Counted from the stretch's first letter, positions 27,743-57,760 are shown. The stretch: 64,000 nt of DNA from Alkalilimnicola ehrlichii (GCF_003399765.1 NZ_NFZV01000001.1:345704-409703), one strand, 5' to 3'. Translations and numbers: made by a program. The notes: a model not told the origin generated them from the letters alone.

Positions 27743-27747
27743 GACGG

Positions 27748-28966
27748 TTACCCTTTCACGCAGACAACTTGCTTAAGTGTGTAGACGATTTCCACCAGAT
27801 CCTTTTGGGCCGCCATCACCGCGTCGATGTCTTTATAGGCGGCCGGCGTTTCGTCCACCACACCGGCATCTTTGCGACACTCCACGCCTTGGGTGGCCTC
27901 GGCATGTTGCTCGACGGATACCCGCTTCTTCGCTTCGGTGCGAGACATGACGCGTCCGGCACCGTGGCTGCACGTGCAGAAGCTTTCTTCGTTACCCAGC
28001 CCCTCACAATGAAAGAGCGCGCGCCCATACTGCCGGGGATAATGCCCAATTCGTCCTTTTTCGCGGAAACCGCGCCCTTACGCGTCAGAAGTACGTCTTT
28101 GCCGTAGTGGTGTTCGCGGGCAACGTAGTTGTGGTGGCAGTTTACCGCTTGCTCGACGCCGAGTACGCGACGCTCCAGCGTTTTTGCCACGGCATCGAGC
28201 GTGCGCTGCATCATGATCTCTCGGTTGATGCGGGCGTAATCTTGGGCCCAAGCGACGGCTTCGACGTAGTCGTTGAAGTGTGCGGTGCCTTCCGACAGGT
28301 ACGCCAGGTCTTTATCGGGCAGATTGACGAACATACGTTCCATGTCCTTCTTCGCCAGCTCGATAAAGTGAGTGCCGATACGGTTGCCGACGCCGCGCGA
28401 GCCGGAATGCAGCATGACCCATACGGACTGGTGTTCGTCCAGGCATAGCTCTATGAAGTGGTTGCCGGTGCCCAGCGTCCCCAGATGATTCGCGTTGTTG
28501 GTTTTCTTCAGTACCCGGTGCTTTTCCGCCAGCACGTCGAAGCGTGCCGAGAGTTGCTCCTTCCAGGCATGGGAGACGACCTCGGGCAGGTCATGCCAAG
28601 CGCCGCGATCTCTTTTGCCACGGGTGCTGGAACGCCCGTGGGGAACTGCGCGCTCAATCGCAGTGCGCAGCGGGGCGAGGTTATCGGGTAGATCGCGAGC
28701 TTTCAGGTCAGTCTTCACCGCCATCATTCCGCAGCCGATATCAACGCCCACCGCTGCCGGAATCACAGCTCCGACGGTGGGGATAACGGAGCCGATAGTA
28801 GCCCCTTTGCCAAGGTGAACATCCGGCATCGCCGCGACCCATTGATGGACAAAGGGCAGCGAGGCGATGTTTTTAGTTGTTGCCGGGCCTTATCTTCAAA
28901 CGGCACCCCGAGCGTCCAGCTCTTGATCGGAACGCCGTTGTCGACGTTGGTCATTTCGTAGTTCAT
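27748..28966 (-). CDS. rtcB: RNA-splicing ligase RtcB, two apparent 1-nt homopolymer frameshifts (~28035 and ~28867)
   Basis: three ORF pieces (28763-28966, 27816-28829, 27748-27948) align end to end with E. coli RtcB (MNYE..., MPDVHLGKG, C-terminal VECRKDAG...VVCVKG); one extra A in an A5 run and one extra G in a G4 run restore a ~407-aa protein. Confidence 0.85.
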
Positions 28967-28996
28967 ACCGCTCTTTCCTGTCTGTGAATTCTAAAC

Positions 28997-29019
28997 TGGG
29001 GATTACACGTATCGTGCCA
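28997..29019 (-). promoter_or_regulatory. candidate sigma54 (-24/-12) promoter for rtcBA
   Basis: minus-strand TGGCACG-atac-GTGTA about 30 nt upstream of the rtcB start; the -12 element deviates from TTGC. Confidence 0.3.
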
Positions 29020-29113
29020 ACGGCTCCGTGTGGCCCTAACGTTTTGATGCGAAAGAGGATGCAGTTTTTCCAGTGCCTAGAGAGTTGTGTCTAAAGCTAT
29101 CGAAAAAGATACG

Positions 29114-30724
29114 CTAAACGCTTTTTCGATCGGTCAGCTCTTCGAAGCTTAGGTTGAATTTGGCCAACATCTGTCGGAGACGGTGAGAGTCGTTGGTGGA
29201 ACGCTTGCGGGTGCGGGAGCGGTTAAACAGCAGGCGTCCGGCGTCGGAGAGGCTGCGGCATTGGGAGCAGACATCGATGATTTTAAGCAGTTGCCATTGG
29301 TCCAGCAGATCGATCTCCTGAAGCTCCGCTTCCGGAATATAATCGGCCAGATCGATGTTTGCTTCCGGTCCATGCGTTTGACTTCGGGGCTGCCAGTGAC
29401 GCTTGAGGCGGCCGATCTCGTCGTTAACGTTTTGCTCGGTGATTCTGCCGCCGTCCGCCAGGGTGCTCATCCGCTGAATCGCTGCATTCAGGTCGCGGAA
29501 GTTGCCGCGCCAGGTGGCCTCGGGGCTGAGGGCAAAGTCGAGAAAGCGCTGGCGCGCGGCTTTGTTGAGGCTCACTTTGTGGCCGTGCTGGATTTCCGCT
29601 TGCTGTAGTTCGTAATCGAGGTTTGGCTCAATATCCTCGCGACGATCTTTGAGGCCGGGGAGTCGATAAGACCACAGGTTGATGCGGGTCAGTAAGTCTT
29701 CCCGAAACTCGCCCCGCTGCACCTGCGTATGAAGGTCGCGATTGGTGCCGGCGATTAGCTGAAAGTCGCTTGCCTGCGGCGTGTCGGAGCCGACCGGATA
29801 AAACTGCTTCTCTTCTATGGCGTGCAGCAGCATGGCTTGCTCGTCCAGCCCCAGTTCACCGATTTCGTCGAGAAACAGCAGGCCGCGGTTCGCCTTGGAT
29901 AGCAACCCTTGGCGGGCGTGCTGGGCGCCGGTGAAGGCGCCTCGGGTGTGGCCGAACAAGGCCGACATGGCGCCATCGCCGCGAATGGTAGCGCAGTTGA
30001 CGGCGACGAACTCTCCTTCGATGAGCGAGCGTTTTCGCTTGAGTTCATAGATACGCTTGGCGAGCTGGGATTTGCCCGCCCCCGTGGGGCCAGTGATGAG
30101 GATCGGTGCCGTAGAGCGGATGGCGACCTTCTCGACCTGCTGGATGAGCTCATTGAAAGCCCGGTTGCGGGTGGCAATTCCGGACTTAAGAAATTCCGTG
30201 CCCTCCAGATGCTGGTTTCGGAAGCGGGAGTTGATGAGGTCGTATTTTGATAGATCGAGATCGATGATCTGGTGGTTGCCGGCCGCGCATCTCTCGCCCC
30301 GCGTCGGCGAGGTTTGGAGGATTTGCGCCGGTATGTAATTGGCTTCGCAGAGCAAAAACCAGCAGATCTGCGCCACGTGGGAGCCGGTGGTGATATGCAG
30401 CAGGTAGCGCTCTTCCTGAGGCTTGAAAGGATAGTTTTCGGCAAAGTCCAGCAGAGTGCTATAGACGTGCTCGAAATCCCAGGCATCGGTAAAGTTGATC
30501 TCGGTGAGCTTAACCTCGCTTCCCGGCGATACGGTTTCTATATCGGCGCCGATGTTGTTGGCTAGCCGTTCGTCCCGCCGGTCATGCAGCAACTCCAGCC
30601 GATCGACGATCAGATCCTCTTGCATGAAAATGCCTACCGTAGGTCGCCAAGCATCCCACCGTTTAACGCCTTTTCCCTTATTGTCCATGACGGAGCCGAG
30701 CAGCCCGATGACGACGGTTTTCAT
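29114..30724 (-). CDS. rtcR: sigma54-dependent transcriptional activator RtcR (CARF + AAA+ + HTH)
   Basis: aligns with E. coli RtcR from MKTVVIGLLGSV... through GAGKS, GAFTGA and ESELFGH-like motifs to the C-terminus; start at MKTVV, with the upstream extension of the ORF rejected. Confidence 0.9.
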   Translation of the reverse strand: MKTVVIGLLGSVMDNKGKGVKRWDAWRPTVGIFMQEDLIVDRLELLHDRRDERLANNIGADIETVSPGSEVKLTEINFTDAWDFEHVYSTLLDFAENYPFKPQEERYLLHITTGSHVAQICWFLLCEANYIPAQILQTSPTRGERCAAGNHQIIDLDLSKYDLINSRFRNQHLEGTEFLKSGIATRNRAFNELIQQVEKVAIRSTAPILITGPTGAGKSQLAKRIYELKRKRSLIEGEFVAVNCATIRGDGAMSALFGHTRGAFTGAQHARQGLLSKANRGLLFLDEIGELGLDEQAMLLHAIEEKQFYPVGSDTPQASDFQLIAGTNRDLHTQVQRGEFREDLLTRINLWSYRLPGLKDRREDIEPNLDYELQQAEIQHGHKVSLNKAARQRFLDFALSPEATWRGNFRDLNAAIQRMSTLADGGRITEQNVNDEIGRLKRHWQPRSQTHGPEANIDLADYIPEAELQEIDLLDQWQLLKIIDVCSQCRSLSDAGRLLFNRSRTRKRSTNDSHRLRQMLAKFNLSFEELTDRKSV

Positions 30725-30871
30725 ATTATCTATCTCGATAAAAATTATTCTAATTCGATAATTATTATCGAGCTGTTCCTCTTTTGCAATTCCAACGTTT
30801 TTTCGTGAATGAGCGTGTGATTTTTTTAAAAACAGAGGGTTAAATTTTTCTGCTGGGCTTTCTGAACAACT

Positions 30872-30887
30872 TGGCACGTTCATTGAT
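30872..30887 (+). promoter_or_regulatory. candidate sigma54 promoter divergent from rtcR, directed at the tRNA-like element
   Basis: TGGCACG-ttca-TTGAT with consensus -24 GG spacing; lies in the AT-rich rtcR upstream region, which also holds the palindrome CGATAAAAATTATTC/GAATAATTATTATCG (30727-30775). Confidence 0.4.
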
Positions 30888-30992
30888 ACCTCTCCTGCGA
30901 CTGCGGGATCGGCCACTACAGGGTTCTGATTCAAACGTCAGACCGGCATCGGTTTCCATGAAACTGGATGTTCCGCCACCCCGCAATCGCCG

Positions 30993-32652: not shown

Positions 32653-33500
32653 CTAAGCCTCGGGCATCGCCCCCACGTGACGTAAGATGTCTTTCGTAAT
32701 CGAAAGTCGGGCGTCGGCGGAGTCTGCGTGTTCCATATCAAGGTTCAGTGCAAAAAAGTACACCTCGCCGTCGCGCTCGACGTAACCGACAAACCATCCC
32801 AGTCCAGGCGTCGCAGGATCGCCAAACCCCGCCCATCCCGTTTTGCCGCTGAGGCGGTACTCCGGCGTTTCCTCCAGCACGAAGAGGTCTTTTGCGGTCT
32901 TCGTCGTTGCCGGCGATAGGCCTAACTCATCGAAGTAAAAGCGTTGCAAAAAGTCGACCTGGGCATCGGCCGAAACGCGCAGCGCCCCCGTCAACCAAAA
33001 GCGATCGATAGCGCCGCTCATATCGCCATTGCCGTACTTAAAGGCGTCCAAGTAGGTTTGCATGTGTTCCGCACCGATACGGCGGGCCAGCTCTTGGTAA
33101 TACCAAACCACAGAGTTTAAAAACGCGGTTTCAAGCGTATGCTCCTCTAACCACGCGGGTGGCCACCACGCTTGGGGCGGTGCGACGGCGTCATCGCGTT
33201 CCAGCGCAAACGCCGGCCCGTTGGCAACGCCTGTCTCCAACGCGATCAAGGTGTTCGGAATCTTGTAGGTCGATGCGGGTAGAAAGGCCGTTTGCGCCCG
33301 TTGCGGGTTATGGCGGATGACACGCTGGGCCTGCGGGTCCAGCAAAACAAAGGCTCCGTTCCGGCCTTCAAAAAGGGCGCAAGTTCCGCGGCGTCCGAAT
33401 CAGCGGGCGCTGCCGCAACGGCGGGCGAGGGCGGCTCAGACGAGCAGGCCGACAAGGAAAGCGAGAACACTAATAATGGCAATAAATGTCGCAGCTGCAT
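32653..33500 (-). CDS. class D (OXA-type) beta-lactamase, apparent 1-nt homopolymer frameshift near 33355
   Basis: motifs STYK (the S-x-x-K active site), SVV, YGN, KTG and WFVGY; lipoprotein-type signal peptide MQLRHLLPLLVFSLSLSAC in ORF 33246-33500; a T5 to T6 correction restores APFFEGRNGAFVLLDPQAQRV. Confidence 0.8.
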
Positions 33501-33640: not shown

Positions 33641-34167
33641 TTAAGTTGCTTCGCAGGGCTGAGCCGTCATTAGGTCGACATACGCGCCGGCAATCAAATC
33701 CTGCGGCTCGATCGCTAGTTCCGCCATCAAGCGTTGCGCAATCTTCACGCCTTCGGCTTCCGTTTGCGCCGGGGTGAGAACAACCTCCAGTTCGATAAAA
33801 CGGCCAAGCTCGGCCACCTCGTCTAGATGTATTCTCGTTTGTCCGACGAGAAAAACCGTGCGGCACTTTTTGACGACGGCGCGGACGCCGAGCGCTGCCG
33901 CCAGAGCCGCTTTGAGGGAGGCCGGGTCATCGGTCGGCGAGCGAATATAGGTCGAGGTCTTCGGACCCGAGGCGTCGGGGCGGTCGTACTGGATCAACTC
34001 GCCCGTACCGTCGCCAAAGGCCCTAAGCTTCAGTCTCCCCTCGGGTACCTGAAAAAAGTGTCTTCCTGCTCAAGCCGCTGCGGCGGGCCGTCCGCGAGCC
34101 TCGCCGCTATGTGGGTTTGCCCCTCGAAGTCGCTTGAGCGGGCTTTTATCTCGATATTACGTGCCAT
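33641..34167 (-). CDS. CYTH-domain protein (class IV adenylate cyclase / CyaB-like), apparent 1-nt homopolymer frameshift near 34030
   Basis: N-terminus MARNIEIKAR...QEDTFFRYPRG in ORF 34030-34422 and C-terminus RIHLDEVAELGRFIELEVVL in ORF 33641-33997; a G4 to G5 correction restores ...GRLKLRAFGDGTGELIQYDRP. Confidence 0.6.
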
Positions 34168-34520
34168 CTTCCCTCCGCTAATGCGGTCGGCTCGATCAAC
34201 GGGGTGCGCGTTTGCGTCGTTGCCGACCTGGTTCGTTAACCACACCTTAGCGCATTTTCCCGCCGCTTCGGTTTGCCCGCGCACCGGTAAATGGCTCTTC
34301 CACGAGTACGCCTTCGCGTTTCGTTTTGCCGGTTCAGCGTGTCGGCCAAGCGAAAGATGATCGGCCACTAGGCGCTGGGGAAGCATTCGTCCCCAGGCGA
34401 CATTCCGCTGGTTATTTGACAATTAATGCAGTTGAGACTTATTCTCAATTAAAATCTAAAACCCATAACTTCTATTCCGGGTGTCACAACTAAACGCCTG
34501 TACCGCGGGAAGGATATCCC

Positions 34521-35069
34521 ATGGGAGCGAATTCCCAAGCAAGGAAAGATCTACTGGCGGTTCTTTATAACAATCATCATCGCTGGCTGGTGCATTGGCT
34601 GCGCAAGAAGATCGGCTGCTCGGAGCAGGCCGCCGACCTGGCGCAAGATAGTTTCGTCAGGGTGATGGCCAGCCAGACCAATTTACACGCACTCTGCGAG
34701 CCTCGGGCTTATCTCACCAGAATCGCCACCCGTCTGCTGATCGACAGCGTTCGTCGCCGCCAAGTCGAACAGGCTTGGTACGAGAGCTGGGTGGGACTCT
34801 ACGGTAACGACGCCAGCATGGAACCCGCAACCGAGGCCTTAGTAGAAATGCTCGATTTGCTGGTGGCTATAACACGCATGCTCGAAGGCCTGCCGGAGAA
34901 GCCTCGCAAAGCCTTTCTCTGGAGCCGTCTGAAGGGCATGCCCTATGCCGAGATTGCCGCCCGTTTGGGCGTCTCGGTGGTCAGGGTAAAACAGTACATC
35001 GCCCGCGCCCTGCTGCATTGTCACGACATCCTTGAAGGTGAGGCAAACGGTGAAGGTCCCCGCCACTGA
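34521..35069 (+). CDS. ECF sigma factor, FecI-like
   Basis: 182 aa; sigma70 regions 2 and 4; immediately followed by a FecR-like gene. Confidence 0.8.
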   Translation: MGANSQARKDLLAVLYNNHHRWLVHWLRKKIGCSEQAADLAQDSFVRVMASQTNLHALCEPRAYLTRIATRLLIDSVRRRQVEQAWYESWVGLYGNDASMEPATEALVEMLDLLVAITRMLEGLPEKPRKAFLWSRLKGMPYAEIAARLGVSVVRVKQYIARALLHCHDILEGEANGEGPRH

Positions 35070-35094
35070 ATCTGCTACTACGCCCAGCCGCACC

Positions 35095-36045
35095 ATGATC
35101 GAGCAAGCTGCCCACTGGCATGCAACGCTTGGCTCGGAAACCGTGACCGAGGAGGAAAAGCAGGCGTGTGCAGCATGGCGGGCGGCGCATCCCAGCCATG
35201 AAGCAGCCTTTCAGCGCTTGCTGCGTGTGTGGGCGCCGCTGGAATCGCTAAACGACGAACTCAAGGAGCCGGCCCTGTCTACCGTTCAGGCGGTGGCGGG
35301 GCGCAAACTGCGTCGGCGCGGCGCACGGTTGGCATCGCTAGCGGGGGCGGTGTTACTAAGCGGTTGGCTGAGCTTTCAGTGGCTGTTACCGGCAGGGATG
35401 GGCGCCGATCATGCCACGCTCGCCGGAGAGCGTCGCGAGCTATTGCTTGACGATGGCAGTCGTCTGTTACTAAACAGCAGAACGGCGATTGATGTCCGCT
35501 ATAGCGATCGAGAGCGCCGCATCGTGCTGCATCGCGGAGAGCTGCTGATCGATGTCGGCCGGGATGCTGCGCGCCCATTTATCGTTGCGACCCGCTACGG
35601 TACCGCGGAAGCGCTGGGTACCCGCTATGCCGTCAGGCAGACCGCCGACGATGCGGCGGTGGTGACGGTGGCGCACTCCCGCGTCAGGTTTTGCCCGGCA
35701 CCGGAGGCGAGCGCCGAGCGTTGTCGGCTTTTGCGGGAGGGGGAGCAAAGCCGGGCCGGCGCCGACGGCGCAGCGACGTCCGCGATCGAGGTGGATGTCG
35801 AAGCGGCCACCGCCTGGACGAGGGGGCGGCTGGTTGTCGACGACTGGCCGTTGCCGCAAGTGCTCTCAGAGCTTGGTTACCATCGCCGCGGTTGGTTGAT
35901 TTTCCACGCGGATTCACTGCAAGACTTGCGCGTGTCCGGCGTTTTCCCTATCGACGATACCGACTTGGCCCTGGCCATTCTGGAGGCGAACTTACCGCTC
36001 ACTATCTCCCGCTATGGGCCTGTCACCCGAATCGCCCGCCACTAG
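35095..36045 (+). CDS. FecR-like anti-sigma factor / transmembrane sensor
   Basis: IEQAAHWHATL N-terminal anti-sigma domain, central TM segment and a periplasmic FecR domain. Confidence 0.75.
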   Translation: MIEQAAHWHATLGSETVTEEEKQACAAWRAAHPSHEAAFQRLLRVWAPLESLNDELKEPALSTVQAVAGRKLRRRGARLASLAGAVLLSGWLSFQWLLPAGMGADHATLAGERRELLLDDGSRLLLNSRTAIDVRYSDRERRIVLHRGELLIDVGRDAARPFIVATRYGTAEALGTRYAVRQTADDAAVVTVAHSRVRFCPAPEASAERCRLLREGEQSRAGADGAATSAIEVDVEAATAWTRGRLVVDDWPLPQVLSELGYHRRGWLIFHADSLQDLRVSGVFPIDDTDLALAILEANLPLTISRYGPVTRIARH

Positions 36046-36144
36046 CGGGCTCTTATAAGCAGAAAAGCCTGCTCGACTCTATACCTTTTGCTCCGGCGCT
36101 CGTCATAACCCATAGGTAAACGAGAATGGGAATTATTTTTATTT

Positions 36145-38882
36145 ATGGGGTGCAACAAACTCATCCGCCGGACTGTCGGGTGGTGCGTGCTGTTGGCTGG
36201 GGGGCTGCTGGCGCTGACGCTTCACGCCGCCGAATCCGCGCATCGCTTCGACATACCGCCAGGCGGTCTTGACCAAACGCTGACGCAGTTTGCCTTGCAG
36301 GCAGGGCTTGTTCTGTATCTCGATCCTGCCTTGGCTCAGGGGCAAACCAGCCCGGGCCTGCAAGGCGAGTATCGGCCCCGGCACGGCCTGTCGCTCTTGC
36401 TAAGCGGTACCGGCCTCACCTATCGAGAGGATGCCGACAGCGGCGCCATCGCTATCGTACCTCGCGCCGCTATCGCCGCCAGCGAGCGGCAGTCGCTGCC
36501 GGCGCTACTGATCGAGGCGCGGCCCTGGAGTCCGGGAGACGACGCCTACACCGGTTCGGGCTCGGCCAATGTGCTCACACAGCGGGATATCGAGCTTTTT
36601 CGGGGTAGCTCCGTGGGCGATATCTTCCAGGGCACGCCCGGCGTGCTGGTGGGGGAGAACCGCAACAGCGGCGGCCTGGACCTCAACATCCGCGGCATGC
36701 AGGGGCAGGGGCGGGTGCCGGTGCTGATTGACGGCAGCCGGCAGGAAACGACGGTACACCGCGGCTATGCCGGCGTCGCTTCCCGTAGTTATGTGGACCC
36801 GGATCTGATCGGCGGCATTCGTATCGACAAAGGGCCGAGCATGACGGCCGAAGGCAGCGGCGCGGTCGGTGGGCTGGTCAGCATGCGCACCCTGGAGCCC
36901 AACGACATCATCAAGGACGGCAAGGATTTCGGCGTCCGGCTTCGAGGTACCGCCATCGGCAATAACAGCGGTCGCACTCCTAGCCCCGGCACGCCGGCGG
37001 GTTATAACACAGGCAATCCGTTTGCCGGCGCAGCGGTCTACCGCACGGACTGTATCGTTGCGAGCCTGTGCCAGGGCGAGTACGCACTGCCCGAACGCTT
37101 CGCCCCGGAGGCCGGTATGGATCGCCCCGGCCTGCTGGAGCCGAAAAGCCATGCCGCCAGCGTGGCCGTTGCCGGGCGCTTGGCCTGGGCGGATCTGCTC
37201 GCCGCTTATGCGGAGCGCCGCCAGGGCAATTATTACGCCGGCAGGCACGGTCGCACGCCGTCCATCGACCTCTCCGATGTACGCGAATTGCCCTTCTACA
37301 CCGAGGTGCGGCCGGTACTGCGCGGCGCTTCCCGATTCCGAGGCGGGGAGCGCATCGTTAACAGCAACTACGAGAGCCAGTCGGTTCTACTCAAGGGCCA
37401 GCTCTGGCTGCCGCGCGAGCAAAACCTGGAATTAAGCTACCTGAATTACCGCAGTACCTACGGCGAGTTGATGCCCTCGCAACTCATGTGGTTCGACCAA
37501 GTCCGGCAGACGGCCTCAAGCGAGGTAACGGCAAACACCTACACCGCCCGTTACCGCTGGGATCCGTTCGCCTCCGATTATTTCGACCTACGCGCCAATC
37601 TTTGGCATACCGATACGCGTAGCAGTAACGACCCCTACTTCGTGCCGGGCGCCGATGGCGAGCCGATGGAAATGGGCGGAACCGGCTCCGAACACTATCG
37701 CCGCTGGGGAGCGGACCTTAGCAACAGCATGCGCTTTGAGGGCTTCGGCCGGCTGGAGGCCCGCTACGGCGGTTCCGCGCAATTAGAAAAGCTCCGCCCC
37801 CGCGGCGAGATCGCCGAGGACACCCCGAGCGACAACCGCGACGGCGATCGCCATGAGCTTAGCGCGTTTGCCGCGCTGGAATATCAACCGCTACCTAGCG
37901 TCACCTTAGAAGCCGGTATCCGGCACACCCGCTTCCGCTCCAAAGACAACACGCCCATGGCGATCGACCCGGGCAACGAATACTGCCCCGAGCCCGACGG
38001 CGACGGCGGCTGCCTCCCCTTTACCTACCGAAGCCGCAATCACGGCACCGTGCCTATGGCCGGCCTTACCTGGGAGCCCGTCGCCGGCATTCGGCTCTAT
38101 GCCCGCTACGCCGAGGCGCTCCGCATGCCCAGTTTGTTCGAAACCACCCAAGGATTCTCGGTGGCGCCGACCCCCGGCCTGGACCTAAAACCGGAGCACG
38201 CTTACCACCGCGAAGTGGGCATCAATATGCTGCGCCATGGGTTGCTCGGCGAAAGCGACCGACTTGGGTTACGCATCGCCTACTTCCGCAACCGCGTTAA
38301 AGACTATATCACCCGCACGCCGCGCAACCTGTGGGAGGAGGAAACCGACAACTTCCAGCAAAACATGTTCCGCATCCGCAACATCGAAAGCGCAAGCTTT
38401 CATGGCTACGAAGTGTCGGCGGAGTATGACGCAGGGTGGTTGTTCGGAGAGTTCGGCGGCACCTGGTACAGCAACATCGAAACCTGCCACGAAGGTAGCT
38501 ATCGTCGTCAAAGCTGCACCGATTACGGCGTGCCGCGCAGCTACATCAATAACATGATCCCCCCAACTGGCATAGCAGCGCCACCCTCGGCACACGGCTA
38601 TTCCAGCAGCAGCTGGAGCTTGGCGCTCGCGGCACCTTCATGGGGCAGCGCACCCCGCTTCCTCCCACTGACAGCTCGCAATTCCAGAGCTTTGCCGCGC
38701 CGGTGTCCTGGCACCGCTATCGCGTGTACGACGTGTTCGCCAGCTACCGGCCCAACGACACCGTCAGCGTCGATTTCAACATCGACAACGTCACGGACCG
38801 TTACTACATCGACGCGCTCAGCCTAGGGCTGGTGCCTGCTCCCGGGCGCACGGCCCGGTTGAGCCTGACGCTTCATTACTAA
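36145..38882 (+). CDS. TonB-dependent transducer (receptor with N-terminal STN signalling domain), apparent 1-nt homopolymer frameshift near 38562
   Basis: signal peptide, STN domain (FDIPPGGLDQTLTQFALQAGL), plug and barrel; C-terminal ...LSLTLHY found in ORF 38640-38882; a C6 to C7 correction joins the frames. Confidence 0.8.
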
Positions 38883-38903
38883 CCCAAGAAGGAGACGCTT
38901 TGC

Positions 38904-41207
38904 ATGAATAGGCCCTTACCGCTGTTTGCCCTAGGCTGCTGCCTGCTATGGCTGAGTGCCTGCGGCGGCAGTAGCAGCACGTCCCGCCCCACGGCCGACG
39001 CCGGTCCCGACCGGACGGTGGAGATGGGGGATACCGTCGTGCTCGATGCCGGCGGCAGCAGCACGCCTAACGGCGACGGCTCATTAAGTTACACGTGGTC
39101 CTTGATCGCGCAACCGGAGTTCAGCAAAGCCGAGCTGGAGGGGAGCGATACGATCGCCACCCGCTTCGTCGCCGACTTACCCGGCCGCTACGTGGCCAAT
39201 TTGACCGTCGACGACGGCACTCGGCAAAGCCAGCCCAGCCGCGTCACGATAACGGCGACCAACCCCTACCCGGTGGCCGTGGTGCGGCCGATCTACAACG
39301 AACTGCTGGGGGCCCAGGTCACGCTGGACGGTACCCGCAGCGTGCCGCCCAGCGGCGCCGACTCAGCCGAGCTGAGCTTTCGCTGGACGCTGACCGAGCG
39401 GCCGGAGGAGAGCAACGCCACCTTGTTCGACGCCACCACCGCAACACCCTGGCTGGAAGCCGACGCCGTCGGCACCTACAGCGCCGAGCTGGTGGTGAGC
39501 CACGCCGGGCAGAGCAGCGAACCGGCCGTCGTCACCGTCACGGTCACCCCGCTCAACACCGTGCCGGTGGCCGACGCCGGCGGCGACCGCAGCGTGCCCT
39601 TCGGCCGTGTGCACCTGGACGGCAGCGGTAGCTACGACGCCGACGGCGACCCGCTCAGCTACCGCTGGCGCTTCGCCAAAGCCGTCCACCAGCCGGCGGT
39701 GCGCTACAAGAACATCCCCATCGGCTCGCAGACCGAGCTGGCGGACGCGGATACCGCCACCCCGTACTTCGACCCGGACCTTCCCGGCGACTACGAAGTC
39801 ACCCTGTACGTGTTCGACGGCACCTCTCGCAGCGCAGTCTCCCGCGCCACCATTACCGTGGAAGCGCCGGAGAGGGACGAGAACACGCCCCCGGTGGCGG
39901 TGCTCCAGTACGACGGCCCGGACAATGCCGAGCCCTACGAAGTGGAGCCGGGCGTCGGCTGGCAGGCTTACGTCTACCCCGCCAGCGGCTCCTACGACGT
40001 GGACGGCGATCCGCTGGCCCACCATTGGGAATGGATCAGCTACCCCAACGGCTTCGACCCGGACGGGCCGCACGTGAACCTGCGCCGCGACAACCCCGGT
40101 CACCGGAGTGCGTACTTCACCCCCACCGAGCAGGGCGAGTACGTGTTGCAGCTCACCGTCAACGACGGCAGCGTGGACAGCGAACCGGCGCAAATCGTCT
40201 TCAACGCCCGCCTCGGCGCCAACCGCCCGCCGGTCGCTGTCGCCGATGCCGACAGCATCACCGCGCTGGTGGGCAGCTCGGTGGGGTTGGACGGCACCGG
40301 TAGCTACGACCCCAACGACGATCCGCTGAGCTACCACTGGCGCCTGATCGACCGGCCCGACCACAGCCAGGCCTCGCTGTCCGACCCCGACAGCGCCCGC
40401 CCCAGCTTCGTGCCCGACGAACCGGGCGCCTACATCGCCGAGCTTACCGTCCGAGACCATCACGGATTGGTCAGCTATCCGCCGGACGAGGTCACCGTCA
40501 TGGCCAAGACCCACAACACGCCGCCGGTGGTGAACCCTGCCATGAGTCGAGGCTTAAGCACCGAGCAGCCGTTTACTCTCGGCCAACCCTTTGGAGCGCA
40601 AAGCTTTGGGGTGCGTGCCAATGCCTACGACGTGGACGGCGACCCGCTGTACTACCTGTTCGTTCTCGCCCAGCAGCCGGCGGGCAGCAACCTGCCGGAG
40701 GCCTCAGACGGCAACGGCCGCGTCTTCTGGAACCTCACGCCGGAGGTGCCGGGTACCTACGTCTTTGAGGTGGCGGTCAGCGACGGTATCGACACCACGT
40801 CCGGGGTCGTCAAGGTCGGCGTGGTGGAGCGGGAGGATTATCCCGGGCTGTTGCTGGAAAACGCACACTGCGCGGTCGGCAGCTATCGCCAGCAGACCTT
40901 CCCATTCAGTCGGTATCCTACCTTTAGTGCAGAGGATCGCTGCCACAGTCTCTACCGCCTGACCGCCGTCGACCGCGATTACACCATCGTCAACCTACAC
41001 ACGGCCTCCGATCATTTCGGCTACGTCCCCTGGTTCGATGGCCTGGAGGACGGCCAGGTCATCGCCCAGGGCGAGGAGGTCGTGTTTTCGGTTTGGACCC
41101 CCGCCGTTCCTGAACATGAGCCTGTCTCTGCAATGAGCCTGGGTTTCAGCGTGGCGGAAAAGCCGGGCTGGGATTTCCAGTACCGGGTGCGGCCTCCTCT
41201 CGATTGA
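38904..41207 (+). CDS. large lipoprotein with 5-6 tandem PKD/Ig-like repeats
   Basis: lipobox LWLSAC; repeated about 95-aa units each with ADAGxDRxV...LDG(S/T)GS.D.DGDPLSY(R/H)W signatures; the C-terminal about 150 aa are unrelated. Confidence 0.7.
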   Translation: MNRPLPLFALGCCLLWLSACGGSSSTSRPTADAGPDRTVEMGDTVVLDAGGSSTPNGDGSLSYTWSLIAQPEFSKAELEGSDTIATRFVADLPGRYVANLTVDDGTRQSQPSRVTITATNPYPVAVVRPIYNELLGAQVTLDGTRSVPPSGADSAELSFRWTLTERPEESNATLFDATTATPWLEADAVGTYSAELVVSHAGQSSEPAVVTVTVTPLNTVPVADAGGDRSVPFGRVHLDGSGSYDADGDPLSYRWRFAKAVHQPAVRYKNIPIGSQTELADADTATPYFDPDLPGDYEVTLYVFDGTSRSAVSRATITVEAPERDENTPPVAVLQYDGPDNAEPYEVEPGVGWQAYVYPASGSYDVDGDPLAHHWEWISYPNGFDPDGPHVNLRRDNPGHRSAYFTPTEQGEYVLQLTVNDGSVDSEPAQIVFNARLGANRPPVAVADADSITALVGSSVGLDGTGSYDPNDDPLSYHWRLIDRPDHSQASLSDPDSARPSFVPDEPGAYIAELTVRDHHGLVSYPPDEVTVMAKTHNTPPVVNPAMSRGLSTEQPFTLGQPFGAQSFGVRANAYDVDGDPLYYLFVLAQQPAGSNLPEASDGNGRVFWNLTPEVPGTYVFEVAVSDGIDTTSGVVKVGVVEREDYPGLLLENAHCAVGSYRQQTFPFSRYPTFSAEDRCHSLYRLTAVDRDYTIVNLHTASDHFGYVPWFDGLEDGQVIAQGEEVVFSVWTPAVPEHEPVSAMSLGFSVAEKPGWDFQYRVRPPLD

Positions 41208-41359
41208 TGCCGGAGGGAGCGAAGGCGATGAGGGAGCCGGGCTATGTCCTTTACCAGCAAACAAACAAGGAGGTGATGCCGACACGATCGATCCGGTACG
41301 CCAGTACCCAAACACGCAAACGTAATGCTTTCGTTAATGTGAAACACAGGAGATACATC

Positions 41360-42106
41360 ATGAAATACGTAAATCTGAACCTGCTGGCCGTGGCGATCAT
41401 GGCTGTAAGCGGCGCCGCCCAGGCTACGGTGGTGGGCACCCAGAGCGACGACACCTATATCGAAGTCGGTGCGGCCACCGTCTTCGGCGGCCCCCATACC
41501 CCCGGCGGCCCCGGTGTCGGGGTTTACACCATGGGCAAGGCCAATAAGGTCGACTTTGCCGGCCTGCAAGGCGTGGTGCCGCCTAACGCGGACGGTGTGA
41601 CTACAATCCACAACCCCATCGCGGACAACCATGGCGGCATGGGCGTGTTCGACTTCGCCAAGGTGGCGGGCCACGAGGTCTACTTCGGCGAGTGGAGCAC
41701 GGCAGGGGACGTTACCGACGGCACCCACACCGTCTACTACGCCGGTGAAGGGGCCACCGCCAGCATGCCCACCTCCGGGACGGCGGAGTATTCCGTCGCG
41801 GGCCTCAGCGACTATGCCAGCAACGGGTTGCTGAGCGGGACGCTCACCGCTGACTTTGGTGCCAATACCTTGTCCGGGGGCATGCAAAACGGCGATACCG
41901 GATACTCCATCGACATCGGAACGGCCACGATAAGCGGCAATACCTTTGTCGGTGGTGGTGCTAGGGCTGAGCTCTCCGGAGTAGAGCTGGCCCGAGACGG
42001 TAATGTGGAAGGCCACTTCTTCGGCGCCAACGCCGCGGCTCTGGCCGGCATCGCCACCTTTGCCGACAGCCAGTACGACGCCGCCTTCGGCGGCTCCCGA
42101 GACTAA
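41360..42106 (+). CDS. secreted TbpB-fold beta-barrel protein (hemophilin/HphA-like type XI secretion cargo candidate)
   Basis: SPI signal peptide MKYVNLNLLAVAIMAVSGAAQA with no lipobox; the C-terminal EGHFFGANAAALAGIATF...AAFGGSRD matches the TbpB C-lobe/hemophilin barrel signature; start moved to MKYV, which has an AGGAG RBS. Confidence 0.6.
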   Translation: MKYVNLNLLAVAIMAVSGAAQATVVGTQSDDTYIEVGAATVFGGPHTPGGPGVGVYTMGKANKVDFAGLQGVVPPNADGVTTIHNPIADNHGGMGVFDFAKVAGHEVYFGEWSTAGDVTDGTHTVYYAGEGATASMPTSGTAEYSVAGLSDYASNGLLSGTLTADFGANTLSGGMQNGDTGYSIDIGTATISGNTFVGGGARAELSGVELARDGNVEGHFFGANAAALAGIATFADSQYDAAFGGSRD

Positions 42107-42205
42107 TGGCGGCCGTTTAACGGTCGGTGTCTTTAGTCGTAACAGCGAGCGCCGCTCTGCGGGCGCTCGTTTCTCGTTTGTTCCGATTCCGCCAGAGTTC
42201 CAGCG

Positions 42206-43684
42206 ATGACGATTGCAATCCCTCTACGCCGGCTGCTGGTTGTGGCGCTGTGTGTGTATAGCCTGGCCGTCGCGGCCGACCCGGATACGCCCCTGCGGCT
42301 CGAACAGCGCCTGGAGCACAGTGCCGCCGATCAAGAGCGCGAACTGCTACGAGAGGCGCTCGATGCCGACGGCGAACACCCCCAGCTTTTGATCGACGGT
42401 CGTCACTATCGGGTTGAGAACACATTGGATGATCTGGGCCGGGCCTTGTATTTATCCGTGCGCGCCCAGCAGTGGTCGGCGGTGCGGCATTTTCTCGCGG
42501 CGTACCGAAGCCTGTCCGGGCACGACCCGATGCTGGTGCACTACGCGCAAGGCGGACTTGCCCGGGCGGAGGGCCGCTTAGTCGAGGCGGAGCGTGAGTA
42601 TGAGGCGCTGCTAGCCATCCAGCCCGAGTTCCTGCCTGGTCGGTTGGAATTGGCGCGGGTGCTGTTCGAGAACCACAAGGATCGCGAGGCGGCTGACCGC
42701 TTCCGCGATATTCGCGCCTCGCTGGACCCCGCCGACCGCCGCGTGGACGGCTTGCGCCGCAGCGTCGAGTTGTTCCTGGAAGCGCTGGAGCGCCGGCGCC
42801 GCTGGCAAGGCTCGCTGGCGGTGGGCGGCGTCTGGGACGACAACCTAAACCGCTCCTCCGAGGATCGCACCTGCCTGGCGGCCGATGCCGCCGGCAACTG
42901 CATCATCGAGCGCCGCATTCCCGAGGCGATTACCGCCCACGGCCTGGATTTCGAGATGGCGGCGAACCGGCGCCTGCCGCTACGGGGGCAGCATGGCCTG
43001 TACCTGCGCTCGCTGTTGTTCGGCGCCGTCTATAAGAAGCAGACACCCTACAACGAAATGACCAGCATCACGCACGCCGGCTACCACTACCGCACCGCGC
43101 GCGGGCATTACGCCGTCGCGCCCTTATTCGAAATCCATCGCTTGGGCAACCAGACTCAGCACGGCGCCTGGGGCGCCCATGCCGAATGGCAGCGCCACCT
43201 ATCGCCCAACAGTTCGCTGAGGGTGGAAGGTCATCACAAGACGCTGCGCTATCGGCCCGATCTGTATGCGCATCATGACGGCAGCCAGCGGGCGGTATAC
43301 GCCACCCTCTGGCATGCCAGGCCTTCGGGGTGGATGCTGTTGGGCGGGGTGGACCAGCTGGAGCGTTCGACCGAGTATCGGGCGGACAGCTATCGCCAGT
43401 ATGGGGCGCGGCTGGGGGTGATACGGCAATTTGACGCCGGTTTCGAAACCAGCCTGTTCACCGCTTTTCGCCAACGGCAATATCAGGCCGACAACCCTTT
43501 GCTCGAACAGCGGCGCCGAGACGAGGAACAAACATACACCCTGACCCTCCGCGCTCAACGCTTCAGCACCTTGGGCCTGACGCCGGCCTTGAGCTTACGG
43601 CATCAGCGCGTCGACAGCTCGGTCGACTGGTTATACAGCTACCAGCGCAACACCGCCAGCTTAAAGCTGGAACGCCGCTTTTAG
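42206..43684 (+). CDS. Slam-family outer-membrane protein (DUF560), type XI secretion system
   Basis: 492 aa; signal peptide, N-terminal TPR-containing periplasmic domain and C-terminal barrel ending ...SYQRNTASLKLERRF, the DUF560/Slam hallmark. Confidence 0.7.
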   Translation: MTIAIPLRRLLVVALCVYSLAVAADPDTPLRLEQRLEHSAADQERELLREALDADGEHPQLLIDGRHYRVENTLDDLGRALYLSVRAQQWSAVRHFLAAYRSLSGHDPMLVHYAQGGLARAEGRLVEAEREYEALLAIQPEFLPGRLELARVLFENHKDREAADRFRDIRASLDPADRRVDGLRRSVELFLEALERRRRWQGSLAVGGVWDDNLNRSSEDRTCLAADAAGNCIIERRIPEAITAHGLDFEMAANRRLPLRGQHGLYLRSLLFGAVYKKQTPYNEMTSITHAGYHYRTARGHYAVAPLFEIHRLGNQTQHGAWGAHAEWQRHLSPNSSLRVEGHHKTLRYRPDLYAHHDGSQRAVYATLWHARPSGWMLLGGVDQLERSTEYRADSYRQYGARLGVIRQFDAGFETSLFTAFRQRQYQADNPLLEQRRRDEEQTYTLTLRAQRFSTLGLTPALSLRHQRVDSSVDWLYSYQRNTASLKLERRF

Positions 43685-43844
43685 GAAATGCCGCATCATT
43701 TTCCTTCACCCCCCTGGCCGCGCGAGGGGGCGGCGTCTCCTGGCGCCCGCCGTACCGTCCCGTAAGCTCTCTACGGTCGCCGAGGCTGCCTCTTGCAAAT
43801 GTCGCCGATTATCTATATGTTGTTCTTCGTCTTCAATGCTTGCA

Positions 43845-44020
43845 CCATATGTTGTGGTGCTGCAAGCAGGGAATCCGGTGCGAATCCGGAACTGTCGCGC
43901 AGCGGTGTAGGGGAGCGAAGGTCGCCGGGCGTAAAGCGCCAGGCACTGTCCGATCAGGATGGGAAGCCGCGACCGTAGGTGCTCGTTACGAGCGTGCCCC
44001 TGAGTCCGAATACCTGCCGA
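43845..44020 (+). ncRNA. cobalamin (AdoCbl) riboswitch
   Basis: GGTG...AAGCAGGGAAtCCGGTGcGAATCCGGaaCTGtCGCGCAGCGGT...GCCAGGCACTG...GGGAAG...GAATACCTGCC (B12 box) matches the consensus core; located in the nrdD leader. Confidence 0.85.
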
Positions 44021-44165
44021 AGACGGCCGCCACCACCGGCGGTTAGCCCGAGCCTTCGCGTCAAAGGCGGCGGGAGCGGTGTTGCGTCTGTGCGATGACG
44101 AACACCGTCCTCCTGTGCTTGTGCGATGGCCGGTTGTGGAACCACACGCGCAGATGGGATGCAAC

Positions 44166-45923
44166 ATGTCGAACCTCTTTCTGTCCCCACACGATAACGT
44201 CTCGCCGTCGAACGCCGGCTATCGCATCGACGTTTCCAATACCATCAACGAGTACCTGCAACGGCAGGATTGGCGAGTTAACGCCAATGCCAATCAAGGC
44301 TATTCGCTGGGCGGTTTGATTCTGAATAGCGCCGGCAAGATGGTGGCCAATTATTGGCTTGAGCAGGTTTACCCGGCCGCCATCGGGCAAGCGCACCGCG
44401 ACGGCGATATACATATTCACGATCTGGATATGCTCTCGGGTTACTGCGCCGGCTGGTCGCTGCGGACGTTGCTGCATGAAGGGCTCAACGGGGTGCCGGG
44501 CAAAGTCGAAGCCGCGCCGCCCAAGCATTTGTCCTCGGCGGTGGGGCAGATCGTTAATTTCCTCGGCACGCTGCAGAACGAATGGGCCGGCGCCCAAGCC
44601 TTCAGCTCCTTCGATACCTATCTCGCGCCCTTCATTCGCAAGGATAAGCTCGCCTACGCCGAGGTCCGGCAATGCATACAGGAGCTGATCTACAACCTCA
44701 ACGTGCCGTCGCGGTGGGGGACGCAAACGCCGTTTACGAATCTTACCTTCGATTGGACGTGCCCGGAGGATTTAAAAGATCAGGTGCCTATCGTCGGCGG
44801 CGAGGAAATGCCGTTTAGCTACGGCGAGCTGCAAACCGAAATGGACATGATCAATCGCGCCTACATCGAGGTCATGACCGAGGGCGATGCCAAGGGCAGG
44901 GTGTTTACCTTTCCCATTCCGACTTACAACATCACGGCGGATTTTCCCTGGGACAGCGAGAACGCCGAGCGGCTGTTCGCGATGACGGCCAAATACGGGC
45001 TGCCGTATTTCCAGAACTTCGTGAATTCGGATCTTGAGCCGCATATGGTTCGCAGCATGTGCTGCCGCCTGCAATTGGATTTGCGCGAGCTACTCAAACG
45101 CGGCAACGGGCTATTCGGCAGCGCCGAGCAAACCGGCTCGCTGGGTGTCGTCACCGTCAATTGCGCGCGGTTGGGCTACCTATATCGAGGCGACGAGGCC
45201 GGATTATTTGCCCGGCTGGATACGCTGCTGGCGCTTGGCCGCGACAGTCTGGAGATCAAGCGGCGGACTATTCAGGCGTTAATGGACAACGGTCTCTTTC
45301 CCTATACCAAGCGCTACCTGGGCACCCTGCGCAATCATTTCTCGACGCTGGGCGTTAACGGCATTAACGAGATGATCCGCAACTTCAGCGCCGACGCCGA
45401 CGACCTTACCACCGCGCACGGCCATGCGCTTGCGGTTCGCTTGCTCGATCGCATCCGTGCGCGTATGACGGAGTTTCAAGAGGCGACGGGGCATCTTTAC
45501 AACCTGGAAGCGACGCCCGCCGAAGGGACGACCTACCGCTTCGCCAAGGAAGACCGCAAGCGTTACCCGGACATTATCCAGGCAGGCACGCCCGAGAATC
45601 CTTATTACACCAATTCGTCACAGCTGCCTGTGGGTTTCACGGACGACCCGTTCGAGGCGCTTGAGCGGCAGGAAGCGCTACAGACTCGCTATACCGGCGG
45701 CACCGTGCTGCATCTTTATATGGGCGAGCGGATATCGAGCACCGATGCCTGTCGCCGCTTGGTGCGGCGCGCGTTGGAGCGTTTTCGCCTGCCCTACATC
45801 ACGGTGACGCCAACCTTTTCCATTTGCCCTATTCACGGCTACCTGAGCGGAGAGCACGAATTCTGCCCCCGCTGCGACGAAAACTTAATCGCTAACCAAC
45901 AAAAGGAGGCGCACGATGCCTAA
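44166..45923 (+). CDS. nrdD: anaerobic ribonucleoside-triphosphate reductase (class III) large polypeptide, without ATP cone or glycyl-radical motif
   Basis: about 585 aa; ends with a Zn-ribbon-like CPIH...CPRC; followed by a glycyl-radical ORF and nrdG; the start is ambiguous (44153 or 44166). Confidence 0.65.
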   Translation: MSNLFLSPHDNVSPSNAGYRIDVSNTINEYLQRQDWRVNANANQGYSLGGLILNSAGKMVANYWLEQVYPAAIGQAHRDGDIHIHDLDMLSGYCAGWSLRTLLHEGLNGVPGKVEAAPPKHLSSAVGQIVNFLGTLQNEWAGAQAFSSFDTYLAPFIRKDKLAYAEVRQCIQELIYNLNVPSRWGTQTPFTNLTFDWTCPEDLKDQVPIVGGEEMPFSYGELQTEMDMINRAYIEVMTEGDAKGRVFTFPIPTYNITADFPWDSENAERLFAMTAKYGLPYFQNFVNSDLEPHMVRSMCCRLQLDLRELLKRGNGLFGSAEQTGSLGVVTVNCARLGYLYRGDEAGLFARLDTLLALGRDSLEIKRRTIQALMDNGLFPYTKRYLGTLRNHFSTLGVNGINEMIRNFSADADDLTTAHGHALAVRLLDRIRARMTEFQEATGHLYNLEATPAEGTTYRFAKEDRKRYPDIIQAGTPENPYYTNSSQLPVGFTDDPFEALERQEALQTRYTGGTVLHLYMGERISSTDACRRLVRRALERFRLPYITVTPTFSICPIHGYLSGEHEFCPRCDENLIANQQKEAHDA

Positions 45924-46077
45924 TACGGCCGTCGAACTGAAGACTGAAGAACGCACTCGTTGCGAGGTATGGACGCGAGTGATGGGCTATCACCGCCCGG
46001 TCGCGAGCTGGAATGTCGGCAAGCAAGGAGAGCACAAAGAGCGGCAATTCTTTCGGGAGCACCATGACTCGGCCTGA
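45916..46077 (+). CDS. small glycyl-radical domain protein (NrdD C-terminal module encoded separately)
   Basis: 53 aa; TRVMGYHRPVASWNVGKQGEHKERQ matches the NrdD R-V-x-G-Y...FN-GK glycyl-radical motif; perfect SD AAGGAGG 6 nt upstream of the ATG; overlaps the nrdD stop and the nrdG start. Confidence 0.5.
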   Translation: MPNTAVELKTEERTRCEVWTRVMGYHRPVASWNVGKQGEHKERQFFREHHDSA

Positions 46078-46675
46078 GCTTCGGGTAGGGGGCGTTAGCC
46101 CCCTTACGACGATCGATTATCCCGGCGAGCTTGCCGCCGTTGTGTTCTGCCAGGGGTGTCCGTGGCGTTGTCATTACTGCCATAACCCGGAACTGTTGCC
46201 GGCTCGCGGTGTGGCCGGTATTGCGTGGGGCCGGGTGCTGGATTTCTTGCAGCGGCGGCGCGGTTTGCTGGATGCGGTGGTGTTCTCCGGCGGCGAGCCG
46301 ACGTTGCAGCCGGCGCTGGCGCCGGCGATCCTCCAAGTTCGTGAGCTGGGGTTTCGCATCGGCTTGCACACCGCCGGTATGTATCCCAAACGTCTTAAAG
46401 CGCTGCTGCCGTTACTGGATTGGGTCGGCTTGGATATCAAAGCCTTACCCGATCGCTATGCGGAGATCACTCAGGTGCGGCGCAGCGGTGGCGCGGCTTG
46501 GCGGAGCGCGGAGATCATAGCCGCCAGCGGCGTTGCCCACGAGGTTCGGATTACCCAGTATCGACCGGCTATCGACGCCGAGCACCTGAATGCGTTGCAG
46601 CGAAAGCTGCGGGCGCTTGGCGTTGAGAACATGCGGGTTCAACCCTGTCGCGTTCCGGAGGTGCGGCTATCATGA
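46064..46675 (+). CDS. nrdG: anaerobic ribonucleotide reductase activating protein (radical SAM)
   Basis: CQGCPWRCHYCHN is a Cx3Cx2C-type cluster; about 200 aa; start ambiguous (46013 or 46064). Confidence 0.8.
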   Translation: MTRPELRVGGVSPLTTIDYPGELAAVVFCQGCPWRCHYCHNPELLPARGVAGIAWGRVLDFLQRRRGLLDAVVFSGGEPTLQPALAPAILQVRELGFRIGLHTAGMYPKRLKALLPLLDWVGLDIKALPDRYAEITQVRRSGGAAWRSAEIIAASGVAHEVRITQYRPAIDAEHLNALQRKLRALGVENMRVQPCRVPEVRLS

Positions 46676-56423: not shown

Positions 56424-56438
56424 GTTGTCGAGGAGATA

Positions 56439-56879: not shown

Positions 56880-56880
56880 G

Positions 56881-57693: not shown

Positions 57694-57760
57694 ATCTTCG
57701 TTATCGATAGCTTATCCGCCAACGAGCGTATGTTCTGTCTGAGGCTAAACGAGGTGTTTC

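Follow-up and report, generated by a model that had tools for sequence, protein, structure and literature searches.

The window analyzed here is a 64-kb stretch of DNA from Alkalilimnicola ehrlichii, and the subject of this report is a locus of six genes at positions 34521–43684 (window coordinates are used throughout). The locus carries genes for a hemophilin, a Slam (type XI secretion) protein, a TonB-dependent receptor and a sigma/anti-sigma pair, and in this core it is a heme-scavenging locus of a kind that has already been described. Taken as a whole, it can be read with considerable confidence as an iron-starvation heme-acquisition system made of two modules, one consisting of a HasR-like transducer and a PKD-repeat lipoprotein and the other of the hemophilin and its Slam. 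With its hemophilin and Slam, a heme-piracy system that was already known now reaches a free-living haloalkaliphilic arsenite oxidizer, a useful but expected extension. The main lead is a widespread clade of receptors paired with a large PKD lipoprotein that bears a conserved domain without a Pfam family.

All six open reading frames (ORFs) of the locus are on the + strand. A preliminary description of the sequence had placed them at the same coordinates and had taken them for one co-directional module consisting of an extracytoplasmic function (ECF) sigma factor, a FecR-like anti-sigma factor, a TonB-dependent transducer, a PKD-repeat lipoprotein, a secreted protein with a TbpB/hemophilin barrel signature, and a DUF560/Slam protein with a TPR N-terminus. 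Profile searches of the ORF products against Pfam and NCBIfam have upheld the assignment of all six genes. Some points have changed. The receptor gene had been ended at 38826 because a frameshift was missed, and its real end is at 38882; the lipoprotein, described as extra to the system, is instead a near-obligate partner of a receptor clade; and the substrate, which had been left open, is now indicated to be heme by the bis-His ligands of the hemophilin, the family of the receptor and the presence of hemO in sister loci.

Hemophilin and Slam

The secreted hemophilin is an HphA homologue of 248 aa encoded at 41360–42106 (+ strand). The protein matches the Pfam families HphA_N (PF22828; 6.9e-38, 129.9 bits with a gathering score of 22) and HphA_C (PF22829; 6.2e-30, 104.3 bits with a gathering score of 31), and further matches were obtained with TbpB_B_D (5.8e-11) and with the NCBIfam model slam_lipo (141 bits, cutoff 80). 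The barrel motif is present as GHFFGANA...AAFGGSR. Read by eye, the leader is of the signal peptidase I type with the cleavage site between MKYVNLNLLAVAIMAVSGAAQA and T (…SGAAQA/TVVG), and there is no Cys in or after the leader. Five solved hemophilins were matched among the PDB sequences, including A. baumannii HphA and the H. haemolyticus haemophore, with S. maltophilia HphA (8GMM) as the best match (1.2e-37). An AlphaFold2 model of the 41360–42106 product, made with 40 homologues, has the hemophilin fold at a mean predicted local distance difference test score (pLDDT) of 91.5. Foldseek comparison of the model gave template modelling (TM) scores of 0.77–0.87 to solved HphAs (8GMM 0.77/0.82, 8GM3 0.77/0.87 and 7REA 0.77/0.78), followed by HpuA and TbpB.

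Shin et al. (10.1101/2023.03.29.534853) have reported that the axial heme ligands of S. maltophilia HphA are His29 and His80. In the HMMER alignment these two residues of 8GMM fall opposite His46 and His91 of the window hemophilin (precursor numbering), and among 120 homologues His46 is kept in 87 and His91 in 115. The HphA motifs described by Shin et al., VYFGEWS and a His-containing motif, are also present. Heme is the likely ligand of this hemophilin, given the conserved bis-His ligands, the heme-receptor family of the TonB-dependent receptor and the occurrence of hemO in sister loci.

The Slam gene (42206–43684, + strand) encodes an outer-membrane protein of 492 aa with a signal peptide, a TPR_Slam domain and a DUF560 (SlipAM) barrel domain. 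SlipAM/DUF560 (PF04575) was matched end to end (positions 1–288 of 288; 2.2e-56, 192 bits) and TPR_Slam (PF24575) was matched at 8.9e-26 and 90.8 bits; the C-terminal motifs SYQRN...LKLERRF are present, and the cargo with its C-terminal TbpB-type barrel lies immediately upstream. Judged by the two Pfam domains, membership in the Slam family is not in doubt. No solved Slam structure that matches the window Slam by sequence was found.

TonB-dependent receptor

The receptor gene (36145–38882, + strand) encodes, once repaired, a transducer of 912 aa that is a member of the TonB-dependent heme-receptor family and consists of a putative N-terminal signalling extension, a plug and a barrel. The ORF as assembled runs from 36145 to 38826 and matches the Pfam Plug and barrel families, so that the earlier assignment to this class stands. 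However, it ends in ~90 out-of-frame residues, because the frame shifts at a C6 run at 38559–38564 (a single-base deficit). The real C-terminus is encoded in a different frame, up to 38882, and reads ...GRTARLSLTLHY, also given as ...VPAPGRTARLSLTLHY for the repaired receptor. Addition of one C to the run yields the protein of 912 aa and restores the family consensus INNMIPP(K/N)WH across the junction, where it reads INNMIPPNWH. The frameshift is probably a homopolymer error of the assembly.

Against the model TIGR01785 (TonB-dependent heme/hemoglobin receptor; cutoff 316.85), the receptor scores 281.1 bits as assembled and 352.3 bits when repaired. The closest solved relative of the repaired protein is HasR (1.4e-44), in an alignment that begins in the signalling domain. 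Residues ~20–118 align with the N-termini of FecA, HasR, and FemA, and STN matches are present in sister receptors. The repaired receptor is 47–57% identical over its full length to the receptors of other PKD modules. With the HphR-type receptors of three loci (L002, L004, and L005; ~1012–1020 aa) the alignment breaks into two segments, and identity is 28–33%. By these sequence comparisons, the window receptor is not of the HphR type and is not an HphR orthologue.

PKD-repeat lipoprotein

The gene that follows the receptor after a gap of 21 nt (38904–41207, + strand) encodes a predicted outer-membrane lipoprotein of 767 aa with K319L-like PKD/PKD_4/Big_9 repeats behind a lipobox. The protein is built of the lipobox LSAC, a Gly/Ser tether, six PKD/immunoglobulin (Ig)-like repeats and a C-terminal domain, and the lipobox-tether pattern LxAC-GGGG is kept in nearly all members of the family. 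The C-terminal ~135 aa (aa ~631–767) form a conserved beta-sandwich domain that has no Pfam family and that is common to a subset of the PKD proteins retrieved. A Slam-type barrel was considered for this protein and rejected, as its C-terminal domain is an Ig-like sandwich. The lipoprotein likewise has no 8-strand barrel of the TbpB/Lipoprotein-C type, and the lack of this barrel, which defines Slam-dependent lipoproteins, fits with Slam being missing from most of the homologous loci.

A pairing of receptor and PKD lipoprotein was not found in the searchable literature (PKD with DUF560; PKD with hemO/TonB/lipoprotein), and PKD is not mentioned in the text of the hemophilin and type XI secretion cargo papers searched. 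For the conserved C-terminal domain, too, this literature gave no function. The sole trace in the literature is a "PKD domain protein" that stands without comment beside fecI-fecR-fecA in the gene table of a Kerstersia gyiorum genome paper.

Distribution of the receptor clade

An alignment of five PKD-module receptors was used to scan one genome per GTDB species and returned 332 relatives, from which 78 loci with 10-kb flanks were kept; their six-frame ORFs were searched with our own hidden Markov models (HMMs). The counts that follow refer to the clade of 70 loci in which the receptor is at least 46% identical to that of the window, the receptors of the other 8 loci being at most 41% identical. 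A PKD lipoprotein with the same C-terminal domain lies downstream on the same strand in 67 of the 70 loci, and in 64 of the 65 that have at least 3 kb of flank. The lipoprotein occurs in none of the 8 loci with distant receptors. Upstream, a sigma gene is present in 62/70 and a FecR gene in 65/70. The 10-kb flanks contain hemO in 24/70, exbB in 25/70, either of these in 32/70, and Slam in 18/70. Slam is missing within 10 kb from 49 of the 67 loci that bear the lipoprotein.

The receptor, a cargo and Slam are found together with sigma and FecR genes in related genomes, in more than one arrangement. The three closest hemophilin homologues that lie on long contigs come from a metagenome, Lysobacter sp. 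CA199 and a Halopseudomonas. In all three the order is sigma, FecR, receptor (1012–1020 aa), HphA and Slam, then TonB or hemO-DUF454-ExbB-ExbD-TonB, with no PKD lipoprotein. Full-length homologues of the lipoprotein in Alloalcanivorax dieselolei, Kerstersia gyiorum and Desulfurispirillum indicum stand in loci with sigma, FecR, receptor (899–938 aa) and PKD lipoprotein and with no hemophilin or Slam. Full-length identity of the repaired window receptor to the receptors of these sets is 47–55%. The strain Alloalcanivorax dieselolei B5 has two such sets in tandem followed by a small TPR protein (L006 222–12538), and the D. indicum set is flanked and interrupted by insertion sequence (DDE_Tnp_1) copies.

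Six Slam-bearing loci were inspected directly, and in each a secreted protein of ~255–300 aa is encoded after the PKD gene and ahead of Slam. In Alcanivorax/Alloalcanivorax, a bona fide HphA (by Pfam) and Slam lie downstream of the PKD gene. A mostly Burkholderiales subclade (L021, L023, L029, L032, L034, L038, L041, L042, L046, L060, L070, L072, and L074) has a Slam that is 25–28% identical to that of the window, preceded by a secreted protein of ~255–300 aa that ends in ...FGG. This protein gave no Pfam match in the three cases submitted and scored only 54–73 bits where our hemophilin HMM detected it; it may represent an unannotated family of type XI cargo.

Kerstersia gyiorum, K. similis and a Kerstersia metagenome-assembled genome each carry six to eight paralogous sets of sigma, FecR, receptor and PKD lipoprotein (L009–L012, L014, L017, L018, L025, L032, L034, L044, L048, L059, L061, L067–L069, L073, L074, and L079). 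This expansion suggests a diversification of ligand specificity.

The near-obligate, tight pairing of lipoprotein and receptor, the extracellular type of the repeats and the heme context of the locus point to a putative role of the lipoprotein as a receptor accessory or co-receptor. We tentatively suggest a wider reading, which is possible but for now doubtful, in which the lipoprotein would be the obligate co-receptor of a clade of HasR-like transducers and the two together would make up a bipartite TonB-dependent receptor of a new class, occurring in Proteobacteria and in Desulfurispirillum. This same tentative reading would take in the six to eight paralogous Kerstersia sets as well as a repeated recruitment of hemophilin-Slam pairs, and the lipoprotein would serve in A. 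ehrlichii to capture a source of heme or to dock holo-hemophilin onto the receptor. Should the lipoprotein be a co-receptor, the TbpB/HpuA problem would have a second solution, of unrelated structure, and the many paralogous FecI-FecR-receptor sets listed without comment in Kerstersia genomes would also be explained.

Proposed working of the locus

The first module would comprise the sigma factor, FecR, the receptor and the PKD lipoprotein. Binding of ligand to the receptor would lead its N-terminal signalling domain to relieve the FecR-type anti-sigma factor, and the freed ECF sigma factor would then direct transcription of the receptor operon, as in the FecIRA/HasISR paradigm. The lipoprotein, as presumed accessory or co-receptor, would capture the heme source or dock it at the receptor. 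The second module would comprise HphA and Slam. HphA is predicted to be exported by Sec, to lose its leader to signal peptidase I and to cross the outer membrane by way of Slam (type XI secretion); it would then bind heme through its predicted ligands His46 and His91 and hand this on to the TonB-dependent receptor.

Relation to known systems

Hemophilins have been established in A. baumannii as Slam-secreted heme carriers that are delivered to a TonB-dependent receptor (PMC8560813). Shin et al. (10.1101/2023.03.29.534853) have listed 1550 putative HphA homologues in alpha-, beta-, and gammaproteobacteria, 1015 of them with an adjacent Slam and TonB-dependent receptor; their set holds one Chromatiales sequence, which may or may not be the window protein. 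Grossman et al. (10.1101/2023.03.15.532718; J Bacteriol 2024) have reported that environmental hemophilin homologues lie near FecR or Fur in 64/72 cases and near a heme oxygenase in 19/72. The co-occurrence of FecR, FecI and a TonB-dependent receptor with environmental hemophilins has already been published (10.1101/2023.03.15.532718; 10.1101/2023.03.29.534853). As loci with hemophilin, Slam, TonB-dependent receptor and FecR have already been catalogued by Grossman, Shin and Bateman, the present locus is a further member of a known system, of composite build.

The preliminary description had matched the locus to the architecture known from Acinetobacter and Haemophilus. This holds for the hemophilin, the Slam and the heme-family receptor, but not for the identity of the receptor, which is not an orthologue of HphR. 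As in the A. baumannii HphA-HsmA(Slam)-HphR hemO cluster (PMC8560813) and the HphA loci of S. maltophilia, V. harveyi and Haemophilus, the hemophilin is a non-lipidated HphA_N+HphA_C protein of the same fold. It shares its bis-His heme ligands with the HphA of S. maltophilia and A. baumannii, and, as in loci of the Acinetobacter type, a TPR+DUF560 Slam and a receptor of the heme/hemoglobin family are adjacent. Unlike in those loci, the receptor is ~30% identical to HphR and ~100 aa shorter, a PKD lipoprotein stands between receptor and hemophilin, hemO and TonB genes are not adjacent, and the host is an environmental haloalkaliphile. The locus also resembles the "Plant/Environmental" hemophilin subcluster of Grossman et al. 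(10.1101/2023.03.15.532718), in which a hemophilin is found with a T11SS (type XI secretion system) protein, a TonB-dependent receptor and FecR/ECF-type regulators. A PKD lipoprotein partner such as that of the window has 0 occurrences in the text of the paper.

The tight pairing of a receptor gene with a lipoprotein gene, and a Slam nearby, are features in common with TbpA-TbpB, LbpA-LbpB and HpuB-HpuA of Neisseria/Pasteurellaceae. However, the window lipoprotein consists of PKD repeats and an Ig-like sandwich and does not have the handle/8-strand-barrel architecture of TbpB, LbpB and HpuA, and, unlike in the TbpA-TbpB type of pair, most of the homologous receptor-PKD pairs have no Slam nearby. 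With E. coli FecIRA the locus shares the order of sigma factor, anti-sigma factor and TonB-dependent receptor with an N-terminal extension, and the N-terminus of the receptor aligns with that of FecA, whereas the scores of all three window proteins fall well short of the cutoffs set for the FecI/FecR/FecA equivalogs and the receptor falls in the heme family. The Has system of Serratia marcescens and Pseudomonas aeruginosa consists of the receptor-transducer HasR, the sigma/anti-sigma pair HasI/HasS, and the hemophore HasA, which is exported by type I secretion. The window likewise has a heme receptor with a putative N-terminal signalling extension, next to an ECF sigma/anti-sigma pair and the gene of a predicted secreted hemophore, and HasR is the closest solved structure to this receptor. 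The hemophore of the window, however, is a hemophilin with a Slam and not a type I-secreted HasA, and a lipoprotein partner is present.

Alternative explanations

Several observations weigh against a heme-acquisition system of the kind proposed. Neither available assembly has the receptor in frame, so that a real pseudogene is possible, and the STN match of the receptor (23.7 bits) is under the Pfam gathering score of 28.4. It shares only ~30% identity with the HphR receptors that lie beside the closest hemophilins, and Shin et al. (10.1101/2023.03.29.534853) have reported that the TonB-dependent receptor is specific for its cognate HphA; delivery of heme from the window HphA to the window receptor is therefore not assured. 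In a rough neighbour-joining tree of the receptors (distance-based, with no resampling support), the window receptor groups with loci that have no Slam. Neither a convincing Fur box nor a shared ECF promoter motif was found in the window and the intergenic regions of sister loci. Finally, hemO, TonB-ExbBD and heme ABC transporter genes do not occur within the 64 kb. Searched throughout with our own HMMs, the window gave no match to hemO, tonB, exbB or exbD, in line with the earlier remark that none is adjacent. TonB-ExbBD, periplasmic and inner-membrane heme transport, and heme degradation must be encoded elsewhere in the genome.

The resemblance of the receptor to those of PKD modules, most of which have no HphA or Slam, and its distance from the HphR type could mean that two independent systems lie side by side, the receptor module importing a substrate of its own and HphA-Slam serving an unlinked receptor of the HphR type. 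The grouping of the window receptor with Slam-less loci in the tree, a gap of 152 nt upstream of hphA and a hairpin after hphA are in keeping with such a division. We consider it unlikely, as HphA-type cargo and Slam have been joined to the receptor-lipoprotein module in several lineages with constant order and strand, and heme is indicated for both modules. In the same neighbour-joining tree, PKD-linked receptors and those of the HphR type fall apart, and 13 Slam-bearing loci stand in one subclade, in which Slam is present in 13/13, and three Alloalcanivorax Slam loci in another. By this placement, hemophilin-Slam pairs may have joined the receptor-lipoprotein module more than once. In addition, a second TonB-dependent receptor is not present in the 64-kb window.

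The frameshift has also to be weighed as a sign of decay, that is, of a locus that is not functional, with a true receptor pseudogene in a horizontally acquired island that is being lost. The frameshift at 38559–38564 is shared by the window and the region's public copy at NCBI (L001, contig NFZW01000001.1, GCA_003399715.1), so the reading frame is intact in neither, and hemO and tonB are not nearby. The locus is the GC peak of the window (0.640 vs 0.587), and no other Alkalilimnicola protein is named among the matches listed for 159 hemophilin homologues; these two observations are consistent with horizontal acquisition, and the second with a recent one. A megablast search of the locus against plasmids gave no match. 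Decay of the locus is nevertheless quite improbable. Between window positions 31359 and 52107 and L001, the two copies differ by 8 single-base indels, nearly all of them in homopolymer runs, with 0 substitutions in 20.7 kb. The Slam gene is intact in the window and broken into 445+76 aa by a homopolymer indel in L001, and the hemophilin ORF is identical residue for residue in the two copies, its product being named in a source as a hypothetical protein of Alkalilimnicola ehrlichii. Genes unrelated to the locus are shortened or broken as well, namely those for RtcB (27816–28829; 337 aa against a profile of 426 positions), PhaC (58843–59742; N-terminus only), a penicillin-binding protein (PBP) transpeptidase (32653–33345; fragmentary), and NrdD (44079–45923; tail detached), and these are probably the same assembly artefact. 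With so many homopolymer errors in the assembly, any single frameshift is weak evidence of a pseudogene, and gene truncations there are not to be read as pseudogenes without read support. The receptor frameshift lies exactly in a homopolymer, one base restores the consensus through to the canonical C-terminal strand, and the remaining five genes are intact.

Slam might also have the lipoprotein as a cargo, lipidated and additional to HphA, that is shown on the cell surface in the manner of TbpB or HpuA. Surface display of lipidated cargo is the role in which Slams were first described. A long Gly-rich tether and a gene position between TonB-dependent receptor and Slam are typical of Slam-dependent surface lipoproteins, and repeats of the PKD/K319L type are typical of extracellular proteins. 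With no Pfam match of the TbpB_B_D or Lipoprotein C type in the protein, and with 49 of the 67 homologous loci having no Slam within 10 kb, a role of this kind appears about as improbable as decay of the locus.

A ligand other than heme, such as another metal complex or a tetrapyrrole, has been proposed by Grossman et al. (10.1101/2023.03.15.532718) for hemophilin subclusters associated with cobalt/molybdenum and would agree with the diversification of hemophilin homologues, some of whose subclusters are unlinked to heme genes, with the lack of an adjoining hemO, and with the absence (in our reading of the sequence by eye) of a His between the FRAP-like and NPNL-like boxes of the receptor, but it is very improbable here given that both bis-His heme ligands are conserved, that the HphA motifs of Shin et al. 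are present, that the repaired receptor passes the cutoff of the heme/hemoglobin-receptor family, and that hemO occurs in 24/70 sister loci.

Regulatory genes and elements

The ECF sigma factor (34521–35069, + strand; 182 aa) matches Pfam Sigma70_r2 (3.8e-13) and Sigma70_r4_2 (9.1e-19). Its score of 151.8 bits against the NCBIfam FecI equivalog is under the cutoff of 260, and the protein is therefore FecI-like and not a FecI orthologue. The FecR-type anti-sigma factor (35050–36045, + strand) matches Pfam DUF4880 (1.9e-13) and FecR (7.3e-21), and its score against the NCBIfam FecR model (180 bits) is also under the cutoff. The start of the fecR gene is uncertain, being either a TTG at 35032 or position 35050 as called in the NCBI copy, with an overlap between fecR and the last part of the sigma gene. 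The gene order and this overlap fit the FecIRA/HasISR paradigm, and from the order of the genes we infer that the locus would be controlled by cell-surface signalling.

A candidate sigma-70-like promoter, TTGACA-18-TATTCT, lies upstream of the sigma gene (34416–34445, + strand) and overlaps a TTGAGA-N5-TCTCAA palindrome and a weak Fur-box-like site (11/19). The candidate is a match to consensus only and is weak, since such matches are no commoner here than in shuffled sequence. No Fur box was found within 3 mismatches of the 19-mer consensus. The best Fur-like sites are the one upstream of the sigma gene (11/19) and one just upstream of the receptor gene (13/19), and 13/19 is attained nine times in the window. 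A search for an ECF promoter motif common to 60 FecR-receptor intergenic regions gave nothing general and nothing that matches the window.

Between hphA and slam there is a GC-rich 10-bp hairpin followed by a U-rich tract (42144–42171, + strand), with a folding z of -1.9 for the region of 111 nt. Similar or stronger GC-rich hairpins occur at the same position between hphA or cargo gene and Slam in L002 (8218–8247), L004, L005, L036, and L021. The hairpin may act as an attenuator or partial terminator or as an mRNA-stabilizing element; as a partial terminator it might set the ratio of hemophore to secretor.

Surroundings of the locus

ORFs with no Pfam match stand at both edges of the high-GC locus (33827–34360, + strand; 43706–44167, − strand). 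Upstream lies a complete RtcR-RtcB-RtcA RNA repair module consisting of a sigma-54 activator, a ligase and a cyclase (26723–30934, minus strand). The anaerobic ribonucleotide reductase genes nrdD-nrdG adjoin the locus (44079–46675) and also the receptor-lipoprotein set of Desulfurispirillum indicum (L008 331–3274), possibly by chance. Strong strand bias is seen at 54001–58000, with a GC skew of 0.18–0.19 and an AT skew of -0.17 to -0.26, and this stretch covers the gene for an FtsX-like permease of 847 aa (53880–56423).

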